From an uncultured Clostridia bacterium (GTDB lineage: Bacteria; Bacillota; Clostridia; TANB77; CAG-508), in assembly GCA_944387565.1 (NCBI GenBank), contig CALXFJ010000002.1, forward strand, positions 9,354-73,353: a stretch of 64,000 bases of DNA. The letters run 5' to 3'. The stretch's first letter is position 1. The number at the start of each line of letters is the position of its first letter. Positions 6,074-57,472 of the stretch are shown one piece after another. The notes under the pieces were generated by a model, which was not told the DNA's origin, did no database searches, and saw only the letters and a program-made list of their open reading frames with translations. The position numbers and the translations under genes were made by a program.

Positions 6074-7300
6074 TTGGAGGCAGTAGAATTGGAAGAAAAA
6101 AGAAATTTTAAAACCTATAAGATTGTAATGCTAGTAATATTAGTTGCATTTGTTACATTTCTACTAACAACTATAGGAATGTATCAATACTTTACAAAAG
6201 ATGGATTTGGAAAGCAACTAGTAGCAACTTCTAGTAATAATGAAGAAATAGCCAATACATTAACTCAATATAGAAAAATAATAGATAAATATTATTTAGG
6301 AGATATTGATGAAGAAAAACTAAAAGAAGGTGCAATAAAAGGCTATGTAGAAGGACTTGGAGATAAGTATACAGAATATATACCTAAAGAAGAAATGGAA
6401 GACTATATGGCAGATACAACAGGAAATTTTGTAGGAATTGGAATATATATGGTACAAGACACAGAAGCAAATAAAATAATGGTATTATCACCTATAAAAG
6501 GAGGTCCAGCAGAAAAAGCAGGATTACAACCAGGAGATTACATAATAGCAGTAGATGGAGTACAATATACAGGAGAGCAAATGACAGAAGCATCTAATAA
6601 AATAAAAGGAGAAGAAGGCACAACAGTAAAATTAGAAGTACAAAGAGGTAACGAGACTTTAGATTATGAAATAACAAGAGAAAACGTAAAAGTAAATCCT
6701 GTAGAAGGAGAAGTTTTAGATAATAATATAGGTTATATTACATTCTCATCATTTGATGATGGAACAGCAGAAGAATTTAAAGCAAAATATGAGGAACTAG
6801 CAAAACAAGGTATACAATCATTAATAATAGATTTAAGAAATAATGGTGGAGGAATTGTAGATGAAGCTTTAGAAATTGCAAATTATATATTAGATAAAGA
6901 TTCTGTTATTTTATATGAAGTTGATAAAAATAATAATGAAACAGAAGAGAAAACAACAGATGAACCAATTATTAATATACCAATAATAGTTCTTACAAAT
7001 GAAAATACAGCAAGTTCATCAGAAATACTTGCAGGAGCATTAAAAGACCACGGAAAAGCAAAAATAGTGGGAACAAAGACATATGGAAAAGGAGTAATAC
7101 AACAATTATTAACATTACCAGATGGAAGTGGTTTAAAAATAACAGCTGAAGAATATTTAACTCCAAATAAAACCAAAATAAATGGTGTAGGAATAGAACC
7201 TGATGAGATTGTAGAATTACCAGATAGTGTTGAAAATGTATTAAATGTAGATAGAAACGAAGATACACAATTACAAAAAGCAATGGAATTATTAAAGTAA
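6074..7300 (+). CDS. ctpA: carboxy-terminal processing protease (S41) with PDZ domain
   Basis: PDZ domain plus S41 catalytic region (GGGIVDEA...TASSSEILAG). The real start is probably the TTG at 6089 behind the ggagg RBS. Confidence 0.8.
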   Translation: MEAVELEEKRNFKTYKIVMLVILVAFVTFLLTTIGMYQYFTKDGFGKQLVATSSNNEEIANTLTQYRKIIDKYYLGDIDEEKLKEGAIKGYVEGLGDKYTEYIPKEEMEDYMADTTGNFVGIGIYMVQDTEANKIMVLSPIKGGPAEKAGLQPGDYIIAVDGVQYTGEQMTEASNKIKGEEGTTVKLEVQRGNETLDYEITRENVKVNPVEGEVLDNNIGYITFSSFDDGTAEEFKAKYEELAKQGIQSLIIDLRNNGGGIVDEALEIANYILDKDSVILYEVDKNNNETEEKTTDEPIINIPIIVLTNENTASSSEILAGALKDHGKAKIVGTKTYGKGVIQQLLTLPDGSGLKITAEEYLTPNKTKINGVGIEPDEIVELPDSVENVLNVDRNEDTQLQKAMELLK

Positions 7301-8646: not shown

Positions 8647-9372
8647 TTAATTAAGTTCTAAGCTACTTTCTAAAGCAAGTTTTATCATTTTATTTAATCC
8701 AGTTTCTCTTTCTTCAGGAGTGGCTATTTCTTTAATGTATTTAGAATCAACAACACTCATTAAACAAGAAGCTCTTTTATTAAACATTTTTGCAGTATAA
8801 AATAATGCAAAAGCTTCCATTTCAGCTCCAAGAGGATTAAAATCTTTTGGAACTCTTTCTAAAAATTGGTTAACATCTGTCATATATACATCAAAACAAT
8901 CAGTACATACAGTATTTCCTTTGAATATTTTTATATTGTTTTTATTAGCAGTTTTTTCAATTATAGAATTTAATTCTTTATTTCCATCTGCAATATGGCA
9001 ATTATCATTATTTAAAGTTAAAGCAAAATTACTTTCACTAAAAACTTGATTAGAAAGTATTATATCAAATAATTTTAATTCAGGGCTATAGCTACCACAA
9101 GAACCAATTCTTATAATATTTTCTACTTCATAGAATTTATATAATTCATAAGAATAAATCCCTATACTTGGCATTCCCATTCCTGATGTCATAACAGTTA
9201 TTTCTTTTCCTTTATATTTTCCTGTATACGCATATGCACATCTTATACTATTTACAAGTTTAACATCCTCTAAAAAGTTTTCAGCTATATATTTTGCACG
9301 AAGTGGGTCTCCTGGCATAATAACAGTTTTAGCAATATCACCTAATTTTGCTTCATTATGTGGTGTTGGCAT
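8647..9372 (-). CDS. deoD: purine nucleoside phosphorylase DeoD-type
   Basis: 241 aa PNP/UDP-1 family protein, with a bidirectional terminator at 8590-8630. Confidence 0.85.
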   Translation of the reverse strand: MPTPHNEAKLGDIAKTVIMPGDPLRAKYIAENFLEDVKLVNSIRCAYAYTGKYKGKEITVMTSGMGMPSIGIYSYELYKFYEVENIIRIGSCGSYSPELKLFDIILSNQVFSESNFALTLNNDNCHIADGNKELNSIIEKTANKNNIKIFKGNTVCTDCFDVYMTDVNQFLERVPKDFNPLGAEMEAFALFYTAKMFNKRASCLMSVVDSKYIKEIATPEERETGLNKMIKLALESSLELN

Positions 9373-9473
9373 AAAAATTCCTCCTTTAAATTTATTTTAT
9401 ATAAATAGTATATCACAAAATGAGAATTTTGGGGACGGAGCTTTTTTGTCTCATTTTATCTAAAGTACAAAAA

Positions 9474-9695
9474 TTACTTACTTTTTGGGTATGGTTTTTT
9501 GATATCTGTTAATTTAGCAATATAATCAATAGATACATTATAATATTTTGCAAATTTTATTATTGTATCTAATGGTGGTATCCTTTCACCATTTTCATAT
9601 CTGATATATGAATTCTTAGATATGTATGCTATTTCAGCACATTGTTTTTGAGTTAAGTCTTTATCTTCTCTTAAATCTCTTAATCTTGTATTCAT
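9474..9695 (-). CDS. XRE-family helix-turn-helix transcriptional regulator
   Basis: 73 aa HTH_XRE protein, transcribed divergently from the FGE-domain gene at 9851. Confidence 0.75.
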   Translation of the reverse strand: MNTRLRDLREDKDLTQKQCAEIAYISKNSYIRYENGERIPPLDTIIKFAKYYNVSIDYIAKLTDIKKPYPKSK

Positions 9696-9850
9696 TTAGT
9701 TCACCTCAAAAATAATTATAAAAAATACTTCATTCGGGGTTGGTTTTTACTCTATATGGGGTATTATTATTTTAACAACCCAATTGGAGTACAATATAAA
9801 ATTTTAAATAATAAAAAATATTAAAACAAAAGAAAAGGAGAGAAAAATTT

Positions 9851-11044
9851 ATGAGTAACAAAAAAGTAGGAAAAGAAGAAAATAGAAAAGGAATAACACT
9901 TATAGTTCTTGTGATTACAATAATTGTTCTTTTAATTTTAGCAGGTGTTTCAATTTCAATGTTAACGAGCCACAATGGAATACTTACTCAAGCACAAAAT
10001 GCTAAAAATAGAACAGAAGAAGCACAAGAAAATGAAGCAAATGCATTAATAAGCTATGAACAAATCATAAATGCTAGTACAGGAGTGAATCTAGGAACGA
10101 TAACAGGAACGGAAACAAGCAATACAGTAGCACAAGATAGTTTAGGTAATAGAGTAGTAGTGCCAGCAGGATTTACAGTAGAAAACCCAAATGATAATGT
10201 AGAAGATGGAATAATAATAGTAGATTCAGATAAAAGTAGAGTAACATATGGAAGCGAATTTGTATGGATTCCTGTAGGAGAAAACATAAAAAAGAAAGAT
10301 AAAACAACATTTGATATAAAATTAGGAAGATATGTATATAAAGAAGATGGAACGATAGATATAACTTTATCAAAAACAGAACCAACAGGCCAATTAAGAA
10401 ATAGTTTAGCAGATTCAATTTATTATACAGAAGGGCTAAAAGATACTCCCACAACAAATACACATGCAAAAGATATAGAGGCATTTATATCAAAAGTAAA
10501 AACAACAGGAGGATATTATATAGCAAGATATGAGGCAAGGACAAAAGCTGAAAGAACAGCTCCAACTAACGATGAAGGATTAACACAGTTAACAGTAAAA
10601 CCAGATGAATATGTATATAATTTTGTAACACAGCCACAAGCAGCAAGTTTAAGTCGAAATATGTATGTAGGTACTAATTTTACAAGTGACTTAATGAATA
10701 GTTATACATGGGACACAACTATAGACTTTTTACAAAAATGTGACGATAGAGAGGGAGAAAATAAAACACCATATTCAAGACAAACTTCTTTATATGGTGG
10801 TATGGCTGAAAAAGGAACTATTGGAACAGATAAAGAAGATAAGATATGTAATATATATGATATGGCAAGGAACTGTTATGAATGGTCAACAGAAACATCT
10901 AGTAACGGTGAATGGCTTTGTGTAGCTAGAGGGGGTTGCTATAACGATGGCAATAATACTACATCTTTTCGATACGGAACAGGAATATCATATAGTAATA
11001 TATACGGTGCTGGTGTTACCTTCCGTCCAATTTTATATTTATAA
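9851..11044 (+). CDS. membrane-anchored FGE-sulfatase (SUMF1/DUF323)-domain protein with pilin-like hydrophobic N-terminus
   Basis: The N-terminus KGITLIVLVITIIVLLILAG resembles a prepilin-type segment but lacks Glu at position +5. The C-terminal region (YIARYEAR ... YEWS ... ARGGCY ... FRYG ... GVTFRPIL) matches the conserved FGE-domain blocks. It is a paralog of the gene at 40926. Confidence 0.55.
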   Translation: MSNKKVGKEENRKGITLIVLVITIIVLLILAGVSISMLTSHNGILTQAQNAKNRTEEAQENEANALISYEQIINASTGVNLGTITGTETSNTVAQDSLGNRVVVPAGFTVENPNDNVEDGIIIVDSDKSRVTYGSEFVWIPVGENIKKKDKTTFDIKLGRYVYKEDGTIDITLSKTEPTGQLRNSLADSIYYTEGLKDTPTTNTHAKDIEAFISKVKTTGGYYIARYEARTKAERTAPTNDEGLTQLTVKPDEYVYNFVTQPQAASLSRNMYVGTNFTSDLMNSYTWDTTIDFLQKCDDREGENKTPYSRQTSLYGGMAEKGTIGTDKEDKICNIYDMARNCYEWSTETSSNGEWLCVARGGCYNDGNNTTSFRYGTGISYSNIYGAGVTFRPILYL

Positions 11045-12883: not shown

Positions 12884-12957
<74 letters not shown>

Positions 12958-12984: not shown

Positions 12985-13058
<74 letters not shown>

Positions 13059-13242: not shown

Positions 13243-14274
13243 TTAATCAAAATTAAAATCTAAATATACATAATTATTCATATCATAAGAAAGATTTTTA
13301 TCAATCATATTTTTAGCAATCTTACAACATTTAGAAATTCTTTTACCATTAAATAGAGGGTCAATATACCTAATCTTAGCTCCATGATGAACAAAGTATA
13401 CATCTTTAGGTTCTTCTTTTGAAACTTTAATTTTCGTAGCATTTCTCCAAATATTAAATATATTATTATATTTAGAATTTTCTATAATATTAATAACATC
13501 ACTTTCTTTTAATTCATATAAATCTCTTATAGAAATCTTATTTTCATTATTTAATCTTTTCAAAATATCAGCAATTAGTTGCATAGAATACCTAGTTCTA
13601 TCCTCACGATAGATAATAGATAGTTTACTTGTAACTTTAACAAAAACTCTAGCAATTTTTTTAGTCTTAAAACCTAATTCAATTTCATTTTCTTCATTTT
13701 TTTGAATTTCAATATTATCATATATTTCTTTAATAGAATTAAAATCTAATAAATTATAAGTAAATAAAGCATTTGATAAAGAATACTCTAATCTATCAGC
13801 AGATAATTTAGGAGTATCGTTATCAGCAATAGGATAAATATGATAATTATTTATTTCAGAAATATCAATATTATCTCTTTTTAATAAATTCATAATTTCC
13901 TTAGAATTTCTAATAATATCTGTTGTTAAATCTTCAGTTGATTCTTGTACCATATAATCTCCATTTAAGAAATCTATGCAGTGTTTAAATACAGGAGTTG
14001 ATATGTCATGAAATAAACCAGCTAAAGTTTGTTTTTTATCATGGGTAAAATGCCATACAATTAAAGCAACTGCAACAGAATGGTCTAAACTTGAAAAGAA
14101 AAAGTTGCTTTCAAATAATTTAGAATATATAGTACCACAAGTAACACTAATATATGATTGTGATAGTAATTCTTTTGTATTTATATATTCATTTAACCAT
14201 TCAGGAAAATTAGGTTCTAAAATATTTAAATAATCTTTAATTTCTTGTTTTATATTATTAAAATAATTCTTCAA
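13243..14274 (-). CDS. HD-domain phosphohydrolase family protein
   Basis: 343 aa with an H...HD metal-binding motif (GLFHDISTP). Confidence 0.6.
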   Translation of the reverse strand: MKNYFNNIKQEIKDYLNILEPNFPEWLNEYINTKELLSQSYISVTCGTIYSKLFESNFFFSSLDHSVAVALIVWHFTHDKKQTLAGLFHDISTPVFKHCIDFLNGDYMVQESTEDLTTDIIRNSKEIMNLLKRDNIDISEINNYHIYPIADNDTPKLSADRLEYSLSNALFTYNLLDFNSIKEIYDNIEIQKNEENEIELGFKTKKIARVFVKVTSKLSIIYREDRTRYSMQLIADILKRLNNENKISIRDLYELKESDVINIIENSKYNNIFNIWRNATKIKVSKEEPKDVYFVHHGAKIRYIDPLFNGKRISKCCKIAKNMIDKNLSYDMNNYVYLDFNFD

Positions 14275-40925: not shown

Positions 40926-42803
40926 ATGAGAAAAATTAATTCAAAAGGAATAACTTTAATTAGTTTGGTAATTACAATTGCTGTATTATTAATTTTAGCT
41001 TCTATTGCTACATATAGTGGAATAGATGTTATTAGACAATCAAAATTAAATAAGTTTACAGCAGAAATGAAAGTTATGCAGACACAAGTAAATGATTTAT
41101 ACCAAAAATATACAGATGGAAGAAGTGTAACTATTGGAGGTAGTACTTATACAGGAGATGATATTTTAAATAAAATAGGACAGGATTTACCATCTAATGC
41201 TGATAGTGTTTTTACAAGTGAAAAATCTGGAATAACGGAAAAAGAAGGATATAGATATTATAATCAAGATACAATTAAAGGATTAAATATAGATGGAGTA
41301 GAAGGAGAATTCTATGTTAATGTAAAAAATAGAAGTGTAATATCAACTGAAGGGCTAGAATATGAAGGAACTACTTATTATACTTTAGAACAATTACCAA
41401 ATGGATTGTATAATGTAGATTATGAAGATAAAAATACAGGAAAACCAACATTTGATGTTTCAATAGAAAATATTGGAGATAAAAATAGAATTGTTATATC
41501 AAATATTAATTATAATGGTTATGTAGATAAATGGCAAGTAAAATATCAAAAAGAAGGACAAGATTATTGGAGTACTTCTGATGATTTAAGCTTTGTAGTT
41601 TCGGAAGATGGACTTTATAAAGTAAAGATAGTTAATGGAAATATAGAATCAGATGAGAAAAAAGTAATGATTTCAGATGGAAGATGGAATGGAAGTGTAA
41701 ATATACCTAATCTAAAAGGAGATATGGAACCAGTATATTGGGATGAAAGTAATAATGAAGTAAATTTAGAAGATGATAATTTTGATTCAACTAAATGGTA
41801 TGATTATAATAGTAATAAATGGGCAAATGCAAAAACATCTGACGGAAGTTATTGGGTATGGATACCAAGATATGAATACCAAGTAATAAATAATGTAACT
41901 GATAGTAGCCAAGCAGGAACAGTAAATGTTAATTTTATCCCAACAAGTACAATAACAGCATGTAGTAGTGATTATTATATACACCCATCATTTAGAGATG
42001 ATAGTAGTAATAATTTCTCTAATGGTGGATGGGATAGTGAGTTACCAGGATTTTGGGTAGCAAAATATGAAATGAGTATGGAAGATGGAAATGGAAATCA
42101 TGTAGAAACGACAGAATCCAATGGAAATGTAGCTTTAAGTGATACTGTAAAGATTGTAAGTAAACCAGGAGTGACAAGCTGGAGATATATAAATATAGCA
42201 AATAGTTATACAAATTCATATAATTATGATAGAACAAAAGAAAGCCATTTAATGAAAAATAGTGAATGGGGAGCAGTAGCATTTTTAACACATAGTAAAT
42301 ATGGAAGAAAAGGACAAGAAGTAACAATAAATTCAAATAGTAGTTATTATACAGGAGGAGGTACAGGAGAAGCATATAAAACAACAAATACAAATCAAAG
42401 TAGTACAGGAAATATAACAGGGATATACGATTTAAATGGAGGAGCTATTGAATATGTAGCGGCATTTAATGGAAATTATTCAGGAGAATATTATACAGGA
42501 AGTTCATATGTAGATGCAGAAGGAAATAATTTTGCAAATACGGGGGGAAAAAGTACAAAGTATGCAACAGCTTATTCAGGAACATTAATAAGCTCAGCAT
42601 ATAAACGAGGTGATGCAACTTATGAAACAACTGGGTGGAACGGAGATAATGAGTTTTTCATAACTTCTGATAGAACGTTTTTTATACGCAGTGGAAGCTA
42701 TTTGGCTGGTTCTAGTGCAGGAATATTTTATTATAATTCTGTGAATGGTGGGTATAATAATGAAGATATTTATCGTTATTCATTCCGCATATGTCTTGCT
42801 TAA
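40926..42803 (+). CDS. membrane-anchored FGE-sulfatase (SUMF1/DUF323)-domain protein, long paralog
   Basis: N-terminus KGITLISLVITIAVLLILASIA resembles that of the 9851 protein. C-terminal FGE-domain blocks are FWVAKYEMS ... FFIRSGSY ... YRYSFRICLA. An intrinsic terminator follows at 42866-42895. Confidence 0.55.
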   Translation: MRKINSKGITLISLVITIAVLLILASIATYSGIDVIRQSKLNKFTAEMKVMQTQVNDLYQKYTDGRSVTIGGSTYTGDDILNKIGQDLPSNADSVFTSEKSGITEKEGYRYYNQDTIKGLNIDGVEGEFYVNVKNRSVISTEGLEYEGTTYYTLEQLPNGLYNVDYEDKNTGKPTFDVSIENIGDKNRIVISNINYNGYVDKWQVKYQKEGQDYWSTSDDLSFVVSEDGLYKVKIVNGNIESDEKKVMISDGRWNGSVNIPNLKGDMEPVYWDESNNEVNLEDDNFDSTKWYDYNSNKWANAKTSDGSYWVWIPRYEYQVINNVTDSSQAGTVNVNFIPTSTITACSSDYYIHPSFRDDSSNNFSNGGWDSELPGFWVAKYEMSMEDGNGNHVETTESNGNVALSDTVKIVSKPGVTSWRYINIANSYTNSYNYDRTKESHLMKNSEWGAVAFLTHSKYGRKGQEVTINSNSSYYTGGGTGEAYKTTNTNQSSTGNITGIYDLNGGAIEYVAAFNGNYSGEYYTGSSYVDAEGNNFANTGGKSTKYATAYSGTLISSAYKRGDATYETTGWNGDNEFFITSDRTFFIRSGSYLAGSSAGIFYYNSVNGGYNNEDIYRYSFRICLA

Positions 42804-42958
42804 TATTTTATTTATATATATAAAGTAAATAAATTTTATATAAAAATAATTTACTTTTTCTAAAAAAGAACTAATAAAAAACTATTAGTTCTTCTTTACT
42901 TTTATGGAAAAATAAGGTATAATAAACAGGTAATTTATAAGAGTTAGGAGAGATTTTT

Positions 42959-51656: not shown

Positions 51657-52688
51657 TTAGTGTTGCTCAGGTATTGCATTTCGTACCATGCATAGATACT
51701 TTAATGCATAATCTATATCTTGAGCAGTAATGATATAATTACCATTATTTTCTTCAATAGAAATATCTTCATCTCTGAATATATTATCTATATCAAATGA
51801 AGAATAATTGTTCCTCCATTCTATCCTTATAGAAGAAATTCTGGTGTTACTACCAATAACAATATCGCCATCAATAGTATGGAACAGAATCCAAGGAGAA
51901 TAAGAATTTGGGTCATATCCATTTGGTAACAATTCATATGTATACTCATTAGGCTCATAGACATGGTCCATAAGGCTTAGAGTGAACCTATTGATTTCAA
52001 TAAGTTCTCTATAATTACGATAACAAGAATCATGATAGAATTTTCCATCAATATAAATGCATGGAGAATCCTTAAAGTCTTTCATCATAAATTTGTTACA
52101 GCAACATTGACAAATTGTACCATCTTTGGGAATATGATACCGAGTTGAATAAAAACTTATAGAACTATTATTATTCTTAAAGTTTTCATAACTTTCAACA
52201 ATACCATGCCTAATTAGCTTATCCCTTTCTTCTTTTGTTGCTTTGATTAACCTAATTGAACCAAGTTTGTCTAGTAAGAGCCAACCAAAGACAACAAATT
52301 CATTGAGAGTTTGATTAGGATGAGATTTGATAAAAAGTGCTCTATCATTTAATAATTCATAGAAAAATGAAAGAGTTACAATTTTATCTTGAACAGCCAT
52401 GATGGAATCAAAATAGTTTTTTGGTTTATCAAAAACTCGTTCCTCATAAGAAATTTCTACAACAGGGAGAGAATTATCTTTACTTTCTCTAGATATTTTG
52501 GCTTGCTTAAGTCTAAAGATTCTTGTTTGTTCTTTAGTGAAATTAGGATGACCAAAAATATCAAAAGATAAAGGAATAATTTGTTCTCCTTGAAAAGAAA
52601 CTTTTACACTATAGGGAAGGGCTAATTTATCCAAAGTGATATGTCCTAAATTGCCAACATTTTTAATTGGCTTATTTTCAATGATCAT
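51657..52688 (-). CDS. hypothetical Cys-rich protein (343 aa)
   Basis: Cys cluster CQCCCNKF...C...HDSC and no recognisable domain. It has its own promoter and leader hairpin (described in the findings). GC is higher than the surroundings. Confidence 0.5.
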   Translation of the reverse strand: MIIENKPIKNVGNLGHITLDKLALPYSVKVSFQGEQIIPLSFDIFGHPNFTKEQTRIFRLKQAKISRESKDNSLPVVEISYEERVFDKPKNYFDSIMAVQDKIVTLSFFYELLNDRALFIKSHPNQTLNEFVVFGWLLLDKLGSIRLIKATKEERDKLIRHGIVESYENFKNNNSSISFYSTRYHIPKDGTICQCCCNKFMMKDFKDSPCIYIDGKFYHDSCYRNYRELIEINRFTLSLMDHVYEPNEYTYELLPNGYDPNSYSPWILFHTIDGDIVIGSNTRISSIRIEWRNNYSSFDIDNIFRDEDISIEENNGNYIITAQDIDYALKYLCMVRNAIPEQH

Positions 52689-55709: not shown

Positions 55710-55946
55710 AACTCAAAATTATTGAGATTTGAAAAAATCAAAAAAATATGTAAAAGCAGAGTCAGCAAGGAAAGAAAAACATTCATATCTACCGTATCTA
55801 TACGAGGCATGTTAAGCATATATAGTGAATATATAAAAAATACTTAAATTTAGAAGTTAAAAATAAAATTATAAGAAAGAAGAAGCACTCTAAGTAAAGT
55901 ACTTTGATAAGTGCTTTGTTTTTTGGGGAAAATTCATGACAAACAC

Positions 55947-55996
55947 TTGTCGGAAATCTTCGTAAATGATATAATATTTACGAAGATTTCCGACAA
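55947..55996 (+). promoter_or_regulatory. perfect 21-bp inverted-repeat operator flanking the -10 box of the abiEi promoter
   Basis: ttgtcggaaatcttcgtaaat - gatataat - atttacgaagatttccgacaa. The arms are exact reverse complements. The spacer contains TATAAT. Confidence 0.7.
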
Positions 55997-56012
55997 AGGA
56001 GAAAAAATAGAG

Positions 56013-56606
56013 ATGGATAATATTAAAAAAATTGAAAAATTATTAAATAAGAAAAATGGAATTATAACAACAAGAGAAGTTGAAGAATTAGGAATTAACA
56101 GTAGAATTCTAACAAGGATGATTGAAAGAGGGATAATTGAAAGAGTTGCAAGAGGTGTTTATATAAGTGTAGATACACTAGAAGATACATATTTTATAAC
56201 ACAAGCTATATGTAAAAAAGGTATATTCTCTCATGAAACAGCTTTATATTTTCATGATTTATGCGATAGAACACCTATAAAATATCAATTAACAGTACCA
56301 ACTAATTATAATAACATATTAATAAAAAATAAAAACTATCAATTTTTTTATTTGAAAGAAGAACTATATGAAATAGGTATTACAGAAATAAAAACGCCTT
56401 ATGGAAATAAAGTAAAAGTCTATGATTTAGAAAGAACAATATGTGATATTATAAGAAATAAAAAGAAAATTGAAATAGCTTTATTTACAGACGCAATGAA
56501 AAGATATGCTGATAGAAAAGATAGAGATTCTATTAAATTGCATAAATATGCAAAAATATTTAATATTGAAGATGAACTAAGAAAATATCTGGAGGTTTTG
56601 CTATGA
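56013..56606 (+). CDS. abiEi: AbiEi-family type IV toxin-antitoxin antitoxin/transcriptional regulator
   Basis: N-terminal winged HTH (GIITTREVEELGINSRILTRMIERGIIERVARGVYI). Its stop overlaps the abiEii start (ATGA). The start is placed at the ATG at 56013 behind an aaggag RBS. Confidence 0.75.
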   Translation: MDNIKKIEKLLNKKNGIITTREVEELGINSRILTRMIERGIIERVARGVYISVDTLEDTYFITQAICKKGIFSHETALYFHDLCDRTPIKYQLTVPTNYNNILIKNKNYQFFYLKEELYEIGITEIKTPYGNKVKVYDLERTICDIIRNKKKIEIALFTDAMKRYADRKDRDSIKLHKYAKIFNIEDELRKYLEVLL

Positions 56607-57472
56607 TAGCTAAAAATAGAGCACAACTAAAAGCATGGATAAAAAATATGTCAGCAAAAGTTGATGTGAATGAAAATATAATTCTACAAAATTATATGCT
56701 AGAGAGGCTATTGGAAAGAAGTGCTGTATCAGAATATAAATATAAATTTATATTAAAAGGTGGAATGCTAATAACAGCTATAGTTGGAATAGATATGAGA
56801 AATACACTAGATATGGATGCAACAATAAAAGGTTTTGACTTAGAAAAAGACAACTTAGAAAATATATTAAATGAAATTTTTAATATTGATTTAGATGATG
56901 GTGTAACTTTTGAATTTAGAGGAATAAAAGAAATAAGACAAGAAGATGAATATGGTGGATACAGAGTATCATTAGATGCCAAGTTTGATAAGTTAGTTGT
57001 ACCTATGAAACTAGATATAACAACAGGAGATGTTATTACTCCAAAAGAAATAAAATACAAATTTGATTTGTTGTTTGAAGAGCGTTCTATAGAGATACTT
57101 GATTATAATATGGAAACTGTAATTGCAGATAAATTTGAAACAATTATATCTAGAAATGTTGATACTACAAGAGCAAGAGATTTTTATGATATTTATATTT
57201 TATGGACAACACAACAGAAGAATTTTGATAAGAAATCGTTAAAACAAGCTATTATAAAGAAATTTGAGTATAGAGGCTCTGTTGATAAATTAAATAATAT
57301 AGATGAAATAGTGGAAGTTATAAAAGAAAGTGAAGCTTTAAAAGAACATTGGAAAAACTATCAAGGCAAGTTTAGTTATGCAAAAGATATTAGTTATGAA
57401 GATACAGTGAAAGAGCTAATGGAAATAGTCGATGTTATAAAAAGCAATAGTAATTATAATAAAATATATTAA
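56603..57472 (+). CDS. abiEii: AbiEii/AbiGii-family nucleotidyltransferase toxin
   Basis: Nucleotidyltransferase motif KGGMLITAIVGIDMRNTLDMDAT (G[SG]-x9-13-DxD). 289 aa, translationally coupled to abiEi. Confidence 0.75.
   Translation: MIAKNRAQLKAWIKNMSAKVDVNENIILQNYMLERLLERSAVSEYKYKFILKGGMLITAIVGIDMRNTLDMDATIKGFDLEKDNLENILNEIFNIDLDDGVTFEFRGIKEIRQEDEYGGYRVSLDAKFDKLVVPMKLDITTGDVITPKEIKYKFDLLFEERSIEILDYNMETVIADKFETIISRNVDTTRARDFYDIYILWTTQQKNFDKKSLKQAIIKKFEYRGSVDKLNNIDEIVEVIKESEALKEHWKNYQGKFSYAKDISYEDTVKELMEIVDVIKSNSNYNKIY

Follow-up and report, generated by a model that had tools for sequence, protein, structure and literature searches.

Two paralogous proteins of an uncultured gut Clostridia bacterium with a pilin-like N-terminus and a predicted lectin-type head related to targets of diversity-generating retroelements

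The 64,000-nucleotide (nt) stretch of DNA analysed here (the window; GC content 26.7%) comes from an uncultured AT-rich gut Clostridia bacterium and carries two genes, both on the forward strand, for proteins that join a pilin-like N-terminus to a C-terminal head resembling formylglycine-generating enzymes (FGE). The open reading frames (ORFs) are found exactly where the first-pass annotation of this DNA had placed them and have the lengths that it gave: the gene of the 625-amino-acid (aa) protein occupies 40926..42803 and that of its 397-aa paralogue 9851..11044, stop codons included, and identical proteins are encoded on 16 and 15 public contigs, respectively. We estimate the probability at about 0.7 that both genes encode non-enzymatic cell-surface ligand-binding proteins, i.e., adhesins or receptors, of this Gram-positive gut bacterium. 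Below, relatives of the 625-aa protein are referred to as family 1, and relatives of the 397-aa protein as family 2.

The longer gene follows a strong match to a ribosome-binding site (GGAGG, 40914-40918). Its product begins with the leader MRKINSKG (40926..40949), which ends in Gly at a putative prepilin-peptidase site read from the sequence as G/ITLIS and which opens a pilin-like carrier module of residues 1-160 (40926..41405), delimited by the AlphaFold2 (AF2) model and by its conservation as a unit. Next come a predicted Fn3/Ig-like β-sandwich spacer at approximately residues 170-250 (41433..41675) and a head of predicted FGE-subtype C-type-lectin fold at approximately residues 255-625 (41688..42800), recognized by Foldseek, hmmsearch and five sequence blocks. 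The end of the head, residues 578-625 (FFITSDRTFFIRSGSY...YSFRICLA; 42657..42800), is homologous to the variable region (VR) of diversity-generating retroelements (DGRs), as seen in alignment with peptides encoded by VRs and by template repeats (TRs), and is fixed here. The middle of this protein had been described as long and rich in Asn, Tyr and Gly; the bias exists and is only moderate (Ser 12%, Asn 12%, Gly 10%, Tyr 8%), and the region is predicted to be folded. The shorter gene has an equally strong ribosome-binding site match (AGGAGA, 9836-9841) and encodes the leader MSNKKVGKEENRKG and a hydrophobic helical stalk, together residues 1-77 (9851..10081; AF2 helices at 11-39 and 44-77), then a head of the same predicted fold at approximately residues 85-397 (10103..11041), supported by Foldseek and by the hhalign match to family 1. 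Its VR-homologous segment, residues 352-397 (10904..11041), aligns with the VR and TR of a related family-2 locus (L102, discussed below), and is likewise fixed.

The KGITLI.LVITI N-terminus common to the two proteins is real: BLASTP aligns residues 5-87 of one with 11-96 of the other (E 2e-7), the corresponding coding DNA is 73% identical over 62 nt, and the N-terminal motif G-[ILV]-T-L-I-x-L-V is found in these two ORFs only among those of the window. This is also the only significant part of the BLASTP comparison, the C-terminal similarity of the two proteins being insignificant by that method. Profile-to-profile comparison of the two families (hhalign, with alignments of 30 relatives per protein) gives 99.3% probability and E 2.8e-20 for residues 372-456 versus 218-296, so that the C-terminal blocks are truly homologous and the proposed paralogy holds. 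Both are large families of gut Clostridia, each search yielding over 6000 matches, and genomes carry several paralogues each, dispersed among housekeeping genes or grouped in small arrays. Tandem arrays of three or four same-strand paralogues (L072, 226-10030; L083, 5547-11728; L079, 9818-13397) indicate local gene amplification of the repertoire. A literature search with the N-terminal peptide strings found no paper.

In class III signal peptides, a stretch of about 21 hydrophobic residues is preceded by a short hydrophilic leader with Gly or Ala as its last residue (PMC8179133). Both window proteins have this form, with a short basic leader that ends in Gly and precedes some 21 hydrophobic residues: MRKINSKG/ITLISLVITIAVLLILASIAT in the 625-aa protein and MSNKKVGKEENRKG/ITLIVLVITIIVLLILAGVSI in the 397-aa protein. 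G8, T10 and L11 are the same in all 30 family-1 relatives compared, and in family 2 conservation is 90% or more at G14, I15, T16, L17 and I18. Counted from the putative cleavage site, G-1, T+2 and L+3 thus show little or no variation in either family. Position +1 is Ile or Val, and the leader of most relatives is 6-14 residues long. The Glu expected at +5 of a pilin is missing, as had been noticed at first pass, and is replaced by Ser in the 625-aa and by Val in the 397-aa protein. It is missing also from almost all relatives: this residue is Ser, Ala or Thr in 71, 35 and 3 members of family 1, Ala in 102 of 110 members of family 2 (Glu in 2), and Glu in none of the 144 best relatives of the module.

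The resemblance to pilins extends beyond the leader. The prepilin domain N_methyl (PF07963 / IPR012902 / TIGR02532) is matched in 13/30, 7/30 and 6/89 relatives; the family profile matches geopilin (E 8.5e-4, residues 2-62) and, weakly, several PilA chains; and the N-terminus of the 625-aa AF2 model consists of a single helix of 58 residues (6-63) followed by a small β domain (67-151). These weak matches and the modelled helix are in keeping with the pilin-like N-terminus that had been proposed. In an exhaustive phmmer search with residues 1-160, the whole module is matched by 1125 cluster representatives (554 of them at E≤1e-10), in which it is joined to various other heads: Laminin_G_3 (PF13385, a ConA-like lectin domain) in 6, FGE-sulfatase in 4, and also Listeria-Bacteroides repeats, BspA-type and other leucine-rich repeats, ChW, GLUG, GBS_Bsp-like and SpaA-like domains. 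Since the heads vary, the 160-residue module is a general carrier for adhesin-type domains. The Fn3-like spacer, which the 625-aa model places between module and head (strands 175-249), matches single Fn3 domains with Foldseek probability 1.00.

The C-terminal heads contain five conserved FGE-type blocks, in the same order in both proteins, as the earlier reading of the sequence had suggested. In the 625-aa protein these are GFWVAKYE (375-382), HLMKNSEWGAVAFL (441-454), GIYDLNGGAIEYV (499-511), RSGSY (588-592) and SFRICLA (619-625), and in the 397-aa protein GYYIARYE (221-228), DLMNSYTWDTTIDFL (280-294), NIYDMARNCYEW (334-345), RGGCY (360-364) and TFRPILYL (390-397). The AF2 model of the 625-aa protein (predicted local distance difference test score, pLDDT, 87.1) has the DGR variable protein TaqVP (5VF4) as its best match in PDB (Foldseek E 4e-7), with Mtd also listed, and the family profile matches TaqVP 5VF4 by sequence as well (hmmsearch E 1e-4). 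For the 397-aa model (pLDDT 86.0), the best Foldseek match is TvpA (2Y3C, 2.5e-4), followed by ToxD, PvdO, Mtd, TaqVP, CarF, OvsA and EgtB. We take ToxD, PvdO, CarF, OvsA and EgtB to be members of the FGE fold (PF03781), and IPR005532 to be the SUMF domain. Both heads are thus predicted to have a C-type-lectin fold of FGE subtype. The PF03781 profile (gathering score 23.3 bits) is passed by two full-length homologues that are 40-41% identical (E ~1e-110), P0098 with 25.6 bits and P0103 with 26.4 bits; the scores of the target protein at locus L062 (20.8) and of family-2 members (18-19) are below gathering, and at E≤0.01 the profile is matched by 6/30 relatives of the 625-aa and 5/30 of the 397-aa protein. 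Membership in the FGE-sulfatase superfamily is therefore upheld at the level of fold and family profile, without a direct Pfam score.

The active site of human FGE is a Ser-Cys-Cys triad (PMC6328139). The Cys pair, which in FGE lies between the RGGS-type and GFR blocks, is absent from both window proteins, the positions being judged by motif anchoring and not by structural superposition. The 625-aa protein has just two Cys residues, C346 (polymorphic between Cys and Ser among strains) and C623, with none between RSGSY and SFR; in the 397-aa protein, C363 is the sole Cys of the stretch from RGGCY to TFR. Pfam annotation of the window ORFs reveals no sulfatase gene; for this bacterium, this and the negative results on DGR and pilus genes given below cover the 64-kb window. 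As the catalytic Cys pair is absent, the heads are not sulfatase maturases, and with a lectin-type predicted fold the suggestion of the first-pass annotation that these proteins are lectin-like stands; the oxygenase-like role that it offered alongside finds no support. Both proteins are non-enzymatic.

Eighty related loci taken from GTDB genomes were compared with themselves; these are all metagenome-assembled genomes of uncultured Clostridia/Bacillota (such as Clostridium sp. CAG:440), sampled in the guts of humans, rabbits, chickens, goats and mice. Nine of the 80 loci contain a second copy of the terminal 150-177 nt of the family gene, placed 280-390 nt downstream, and in a tenth, L087, the repeat is just 68 nt long. 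Adenines of the downstream copy account for nearly all mismatches (16/17, 12/13, 27/32, 28/30, 17/17, 25/25 in L062, 20/23, 30/31 and 9/9), and such an adenine-mismatched template repeat is present in L021, L036, L040, L048, L059, L062, L070, L076, L087 and L102. An adenine-biased repeat of the 3' end is, by its mismatch pattern, the VR/TR signature of DGRs. The gene order at L062 is target (537 aa, with the N-terminus NNGITLIALVITIIVLLILAG), TR, bAvd (PF22296, 3.5e-23) and reverse transcriptase (RT; RVT_1, 3.8e-25). RT and Avd homologues adjoin the family gene at about 11 of 80 family-1 loci and, overall, at about 14 loci; if the count is limited to loci whose downstream sequence extends for at least 2.5 kb, 9 of 60 (~15%) are DGR-linked. 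Family 2 is represented by L102, with VR at 7001-7135, an ORF with a MutS_I domain, bAvd, RT, and TR at 9280-9414 (25/26 mismatches at TR adenines), and by L147 and L155, which also carry RT or Avd. The MutS-related ORF of L102 (7376-7879, 167 aa; MutS domain I, PF01624, 3.1e-8) is placed between the target and bAvd, and the TR of this locus is downstream of RT.

In the DGR-linked loci, the variable region is made of the last ~50 codons of the family gene. The TR-encoded peptides are rich in Asn (L062, DNANFVNSNNPFFKRGGNYNNGSNAGVFNFNNNNGSSNSNNSFRVSLAI; L102, YSNSNNPCTNRGGNYNNSNNYTSNRNNNNTSNSNDNISFRSL), and both window C-termini align with the VR/TR peptides of L062, L102 and other loci. As judged from these repeats, the heads of the related proteins are a scaffold that is hypermutated by DGRs. 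Cellular DGR targets are typically membrane-anchored and have adhesion domains (PMC8144416), and rare DGR targets of the GspG pilin type have been mentioned in a DGR survey (PMC11661182).

The copies in the window itself are not being diversified. Tblastn finds no RT or Avd in the window (E≥0.4), Pfam detects no RVT_1 or bAvd in its ORFs, and the 3' end of neither gene has a direct repeat within the window. Among 17 near-identical variants of the 625-aa protein from different samples (16 compared with the reference, P0001), substitutions cluster at residues 343-410, and the last 50 residues have only two single changes; the C-terminus of the 397-aa cluster is likewise near-invariant among strain variants. 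The GC content of the last 150 nt is 0.33 and 0.37, versus 0.43-0.54 in true variable regions (genomes 0.25-0.29 GC), and the C-terminal segment of the 625-aa protein contains one Glu and an insert of 3-4 residues, which mutagenesis of AAY codons would not produce. DGR activity in the window was thus considered and rejected: there is no repeat, no RT or Avd, and strain variation is not concentrated at the C-terminus. With C-termini essentially invariant across strains and no TR or RT in the window, the two copies belong to the fixed part of the repertoire.

The same locus in sister strains, with the same order of UPF0158, family gene and lysS and a gene body ~90% identical, contains a different 3' cassette of ~330 nt (L089, 9670-9990, and L091, versus window 42580-42860), an allelic replacement on the lysS side of the 625-aa gene. 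The flanking DNA is near-identical on both sides; the cassette has a GC content of 0.48-0.50 versus 0.28 for the locus, the window version being AT-rich, and is 70-76% identical in DNA to VR/TR of other species. Over their last 54 codons, two sister alleles differ at 46 sites, of which 78% are first or second codon positions; over their first 1500 nt, they differ at only 56 sites, most of them third positions. Sister strains have no TR or RT in cis, and the intergenic space of ~160 nt is too small for them. This points to past or remote action of a DGR in the sister lineage, and any diversification there would not be rampant, given that 12 of 16 sister alleles share one identical C-terminus.

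Both genes are located among housekeeping genes (pheT, ffh, rpsP, trmD, rplS, lysS; greA, pyrG) in conserved gene order. The 625-aa gene had been assigned to a tRNA-Gln islet; no anomaly of composition or GC marks off such an islet, and the order of genes is kept in sister strains. A terminator-like hairpin found by scan at 40810-40839 is followed by a promoter-like site on the forward strand at 40866..40893 (TTATCA, 16 nt, TG-TATAAT, an extended -10), so that the 625-aa gene seems to form a separate transcription unit; the promoter-like site comes from a consensus scan only and is weak evidence, as the regional count of such sites equals the shuffle expectation. Downstream, at 42866..42893 (forward strand), an inverted repeat followed by a T-rich run, read off the sequence, is a probable terminator; it is kept in sister strains and was not called by the terminator scan. 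The UPF0158 gene upstream (40378-40781) is called as two pieces of 39 aa and 104 aa, and in sister strain L089 (7452-7856) it is one ORF of 134 aa, which may reflect a frameshift or a start difference. The preceding ORF, which has no annotation, is 330 aa long in the window versus 316 aa in L089.

The 397-aa gene is divergent to a gene for an XRE-type helix-turn-helix (HTH) regulator of 73 aa on the reverse strand (9474..9695; Pfam HTH_3, HTH_19, HTH_31), which confirms the arrangement described at first pass. Homologues of this regulator are divergent to and upstream of family genes in at least six loci (L081, L108, L109, L168, L148 and L155), and since this recurs in several unrelated loci, the XRE gene may be a dedicated regulator of the 397-aa gene. 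Locus L062 also carries an HTH-like ORF, at 9534-9776.

Several other features of the window deserve mention. ORFs at 55911-57472 encode an AbiEi antitoxin and AbiEii nucleotidyltransferase toxin pair (a type IV toxin-antitoxin, or abortive-infection, system) among housekeeping genes. The product of the reverse-strand gene at 26752-28107 (451 aa) contains a von Willebrand factor A domain (VWA_2, 4.7e-12), has no pilin-like motif and may be another surface or adhesion protein. A radical-SAM ORF of 188 aa (22504-23070) adjoins a HemN_C ORF of 160 aa (23174-23656), and the two look like one split gene of the HemN/HemW type. Tandem tRNA-Gly(TCC) genes at 12884-12957 and 12985-13058 are 96% identical. 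Two ORFs of 343 aa on the reverse strand, at 13243-14274 and 51657-52688, have no solid Pfam match; their relatedness was considered and rejected (BLASTP E 3.6), the equal length being a coincidence.

How would proteins of this kind work at the cell surface? The basic leader and the ~21 hydrophobic residues would insert into the membrane and leave the remainder outside, and the hydrophobic segment would extend into a single long helix, as it does in type IV pilins. The pilin-like carrier of 160 residues would then, in the 625-aa copy, be followed by the Fn3-like spacer and by the head. The last ~45 residues of the FGE-type lectin fold would form the exposed binding surface, which in relatives is rewritten by adenine-specific mutagenic reverse transcription (DGR mutagenic retrohoming), and both copies in this genome would be fixed-specificity members of a large paralogous repertoire. 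The proteins would be tethered to the membrane, and display on a filament may occur. We infer surface exposure and ligand binding for both proteins, and the leader may be cut by prepilin peptidase. The absence of Glu5 suggests either a position at the tip or a lack of polymerisation, and is equally compatible with a tip-located minor pilin and with a non-polymerising membrane anchor.

Several results weigh against parts of this interpretation. Neither window protein matches PF03781 even at E≤1, an outcome that the first-pass annotation had itself named as counting, formally, against an FGE domain, and the fold assignment rests on AF2 predictions. The N_methyl score of the 625-aa protein, 17.5 bits, is under the cut-off of 21.2 bits, the 397-aa protein has no N_methyl match, and an NCBIfam scan of both proteins found no pilin-domain match above cut-off. 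There is no pilus ATPase, platform protein, prepilin peptidase or Glu5 pilin among the Pfam-annotated ORFs of the window, and no type IV pilus or prepilin-peptidase gene was detected in 1.6 Mb flanking family genes by motif scans (regular expressions for Glu5 pilins, the GspE-type Walker A and the A24 peptidase motif), which are crude, so that divergent genes could escape them. The single GspE-like match, in L152, is instead a fragment of a SpoIIIAA-like ATPase. With nothing relevant in these scans, a pilus operon context was rejected for the window and for the 1.6 Mb of related loci, and a pilus role is unsupported.

One possibility, with the odds clearly on the other side, is that the proteins are true type IV pilins or pseudopilins, which would be cut after the Gly and would reside, lacking Glu5, at the tip of a filament with the lectin-fold head on display. 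The class III-like signal, the near-invariance of G-1, T+2 and L+3, the matches to geopilin, PilA and, in relatives, N_methyl, and the modelled helix and β domain all fit this idea, and modular pilins with lectin heads are established, the combination IPR012902-IPR005532 being listed among them (PMC8179133). It is opposed by the near-complete lack of Glu5 (0/144 and 2/219 members), by Ile or Val in place of Phe at +1, by N_methyl scores that in the window proteins are under threshold or nil, by the missing pilus genes, and by the scattering of several paralogues per genome among housekeeping genes. A somewhat better candidate, if still short of even odds, is an uncleaved signal-anchor: both would be type II membrane proteins, whose long helix and spacer carry the head across the cell wall, and no filament would be formed. 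A basic n-region with a hydrophobic helix of 20-22 residues fits a transmembrane anchor, as does the failure to detect pilus genes in the window or the 1.6 Mb of flanks, and the DGR-linked family-2 protein of L102 has a divergent hydrophobic N-terminus without KGITLI; a generic anchor would, however, leave unexplained why the strict KG-ITLI and the 160-residue module are conserved over more than 1000 diverged clusters.

Alternatives that concern the head are much less probable. It is quite unlikely that a DGR at another site of this genome actively targets the window copies from a distance, even if sister strains, themselves devoid of cis TR or RT, carry at this very locus the GC-rich VR-like cassette with its substitutions at codon positions 1 and 2: the C-termini of the window type are AT-rich, invariant in at least 17 samples and without a DNA match to any VR or TR, the Glu and the insert of the 625-aa copy are not what AAY-codon mutagenesis would give, and one C-terminus prevails in 12/16 sister alleles. 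An extracytoplasmic FGE-type enzyme, sulfatase maturase or other oxidase, would agree with the superfamily fold and sequence blocks, and is very improbable given the missing Cys pair of human FGE, the lack of a sulfatase gene in the window and of the DinB-like iron-binding domain seen in EgtB/OvoA enzymes, and closest structures that are non-catalytic DGR variable proteins. Least plausible of all are receptor-binding proteins of a phage or prophage. Lectin-fold DGR targets are common in phage tail fibres (Mtd), and the C-terminal domain has five weak matches in IMG/VR, but these five viral loci stand against at least 595 genomic ones, both genes belong to a conserved order of housekeeping genes, and the membrane-anchor N-terminus is unfit for a virion protein.

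The reading of both genes as encoding surface binding proteins brings two products without annotation or above-threshold Pfam match into a recognizable class, that of surface binding proteins on a scaffold used by DGRs. Homology pipelines could mislabel both as sulfatase maturases or formylglycine-generating enzymes, against which the present analysis argues. The result for the window itself is ordinary, i.e., two fixed family members and no retroelement; the broader picture is that uncultured low-GC gut Clostridia have large repertoires of such proteins, a sizeable minority of them DGR targets, with one carrier serving many adhesin modules, and these are abundant candidates for how Gram-positive gut commensals vary the specificity of surface binding. 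The fold class, the class of DGR targets, the modular-pilin concept and the combination of pilin with SUMF domain were known already; within the literature that we searched, what is new is a large Glu5-less carrier family of uncultured gut Clostridia with frequent DGR coupling. The question that this raises is whether Glu5-less pilin-like carriers are processed or polymerised. A speculative extension, which we consider a shade less likely than the pilin alternative discussed above, is that the Glu5-less 160-residue module represents a distinct surface-display system of uncultured gut Clostridia with interchangeable adhesin heads, including DGR-hypermutated lectin folds; as part of the same conjecture, the module would serve either as a special tip subunit in type 4 filaments or as an anchor that depends on prepilin peptidase and does not polymerise, and alleles at lysS would switch between a diversifiable GC-rich and a fixed AT-rich cassette.

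Several known systems are close to these proteins. Human FGE (SUMF1), EgtB, OvoA and PvdO (PF03781) have the fold and the five sequence blocks in common with the window proteins, which differ from them in lacking the Cys pair, a PF03781 score, the DinB domain and a nearby sulfatase gene. Minor pilins and pseudopilins of the GspK/PilX type are large, lack Glu5 and have been proposed to sit at the filament tip. For GspK the position proposed is the tip of the pseudopilus (PMC8179133). The window proteins likewise lack Glu5, a likeness compared at the N-terminal helix only; unlike the window genes, GspK is encoded within its own machinery operon. Modular type IV pilins, such as PilB (vWA head) and PilC (ConA-like lectin head) of Streptococcus sanguinis, join a small pilin-like carrier to a binding module, as is the case here, and the window carrier module bears elsewhere Laminin_G_3 heads, similar to PilC-type pilins. 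In contrast to them, the window proteins have no Glu5, have Ile or Val at +1 and score below the N_methyl threshold, and their genes are outside pilus operons, with no pilus machinery detected. The architecture, called unusual at first pass, had already been catalogued: IPR012902-IPR005532 is found in 8 proteins in Dataset S1 of PMC8179133, and each of the two families has its thousands of matches.

The tip adhesins of type V pili in Bacteroides (bioRxiv 10.1101/2024.11.15.621889) embody the same concept in gut bacteria, namely a pilin-like N-terminus with a DGR-diversified lectin-fold head; they belong to another phylum and to a type V pilus with lipoprotein-type precursors, and the likeness is one of concept. 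If the display system conjectured above exists, it would be the Firmicutes counterpart of these adhesins. The best structural matches are the DGR variable proteins TvpA of Treponema denticola (2Y3C), TaqVP of Thermus aquaticus (5VF4) and Mtd of Bordetella phage BPP-1, and by sequence, too, TaqVP matches best. TvpA and TaqVP each consist of a single domain, and Mtd forms a trimer in the phage fibre (PMC6328139), whereas the window proteins carry the pilin-like N-terminal module, to which the 625-aa copy adds the Fn3-like spacer; the window copies differ also in having no TR or RT in the window and in being invariant across strains. Common to all of them are the scaffold ...R-G-G-x-Y...F-R..., which reaches the extreme C-terminus, and an association with retroelements, as close homologues of the window proteins are DGR targets accompanied by TR, bAvd and RT.

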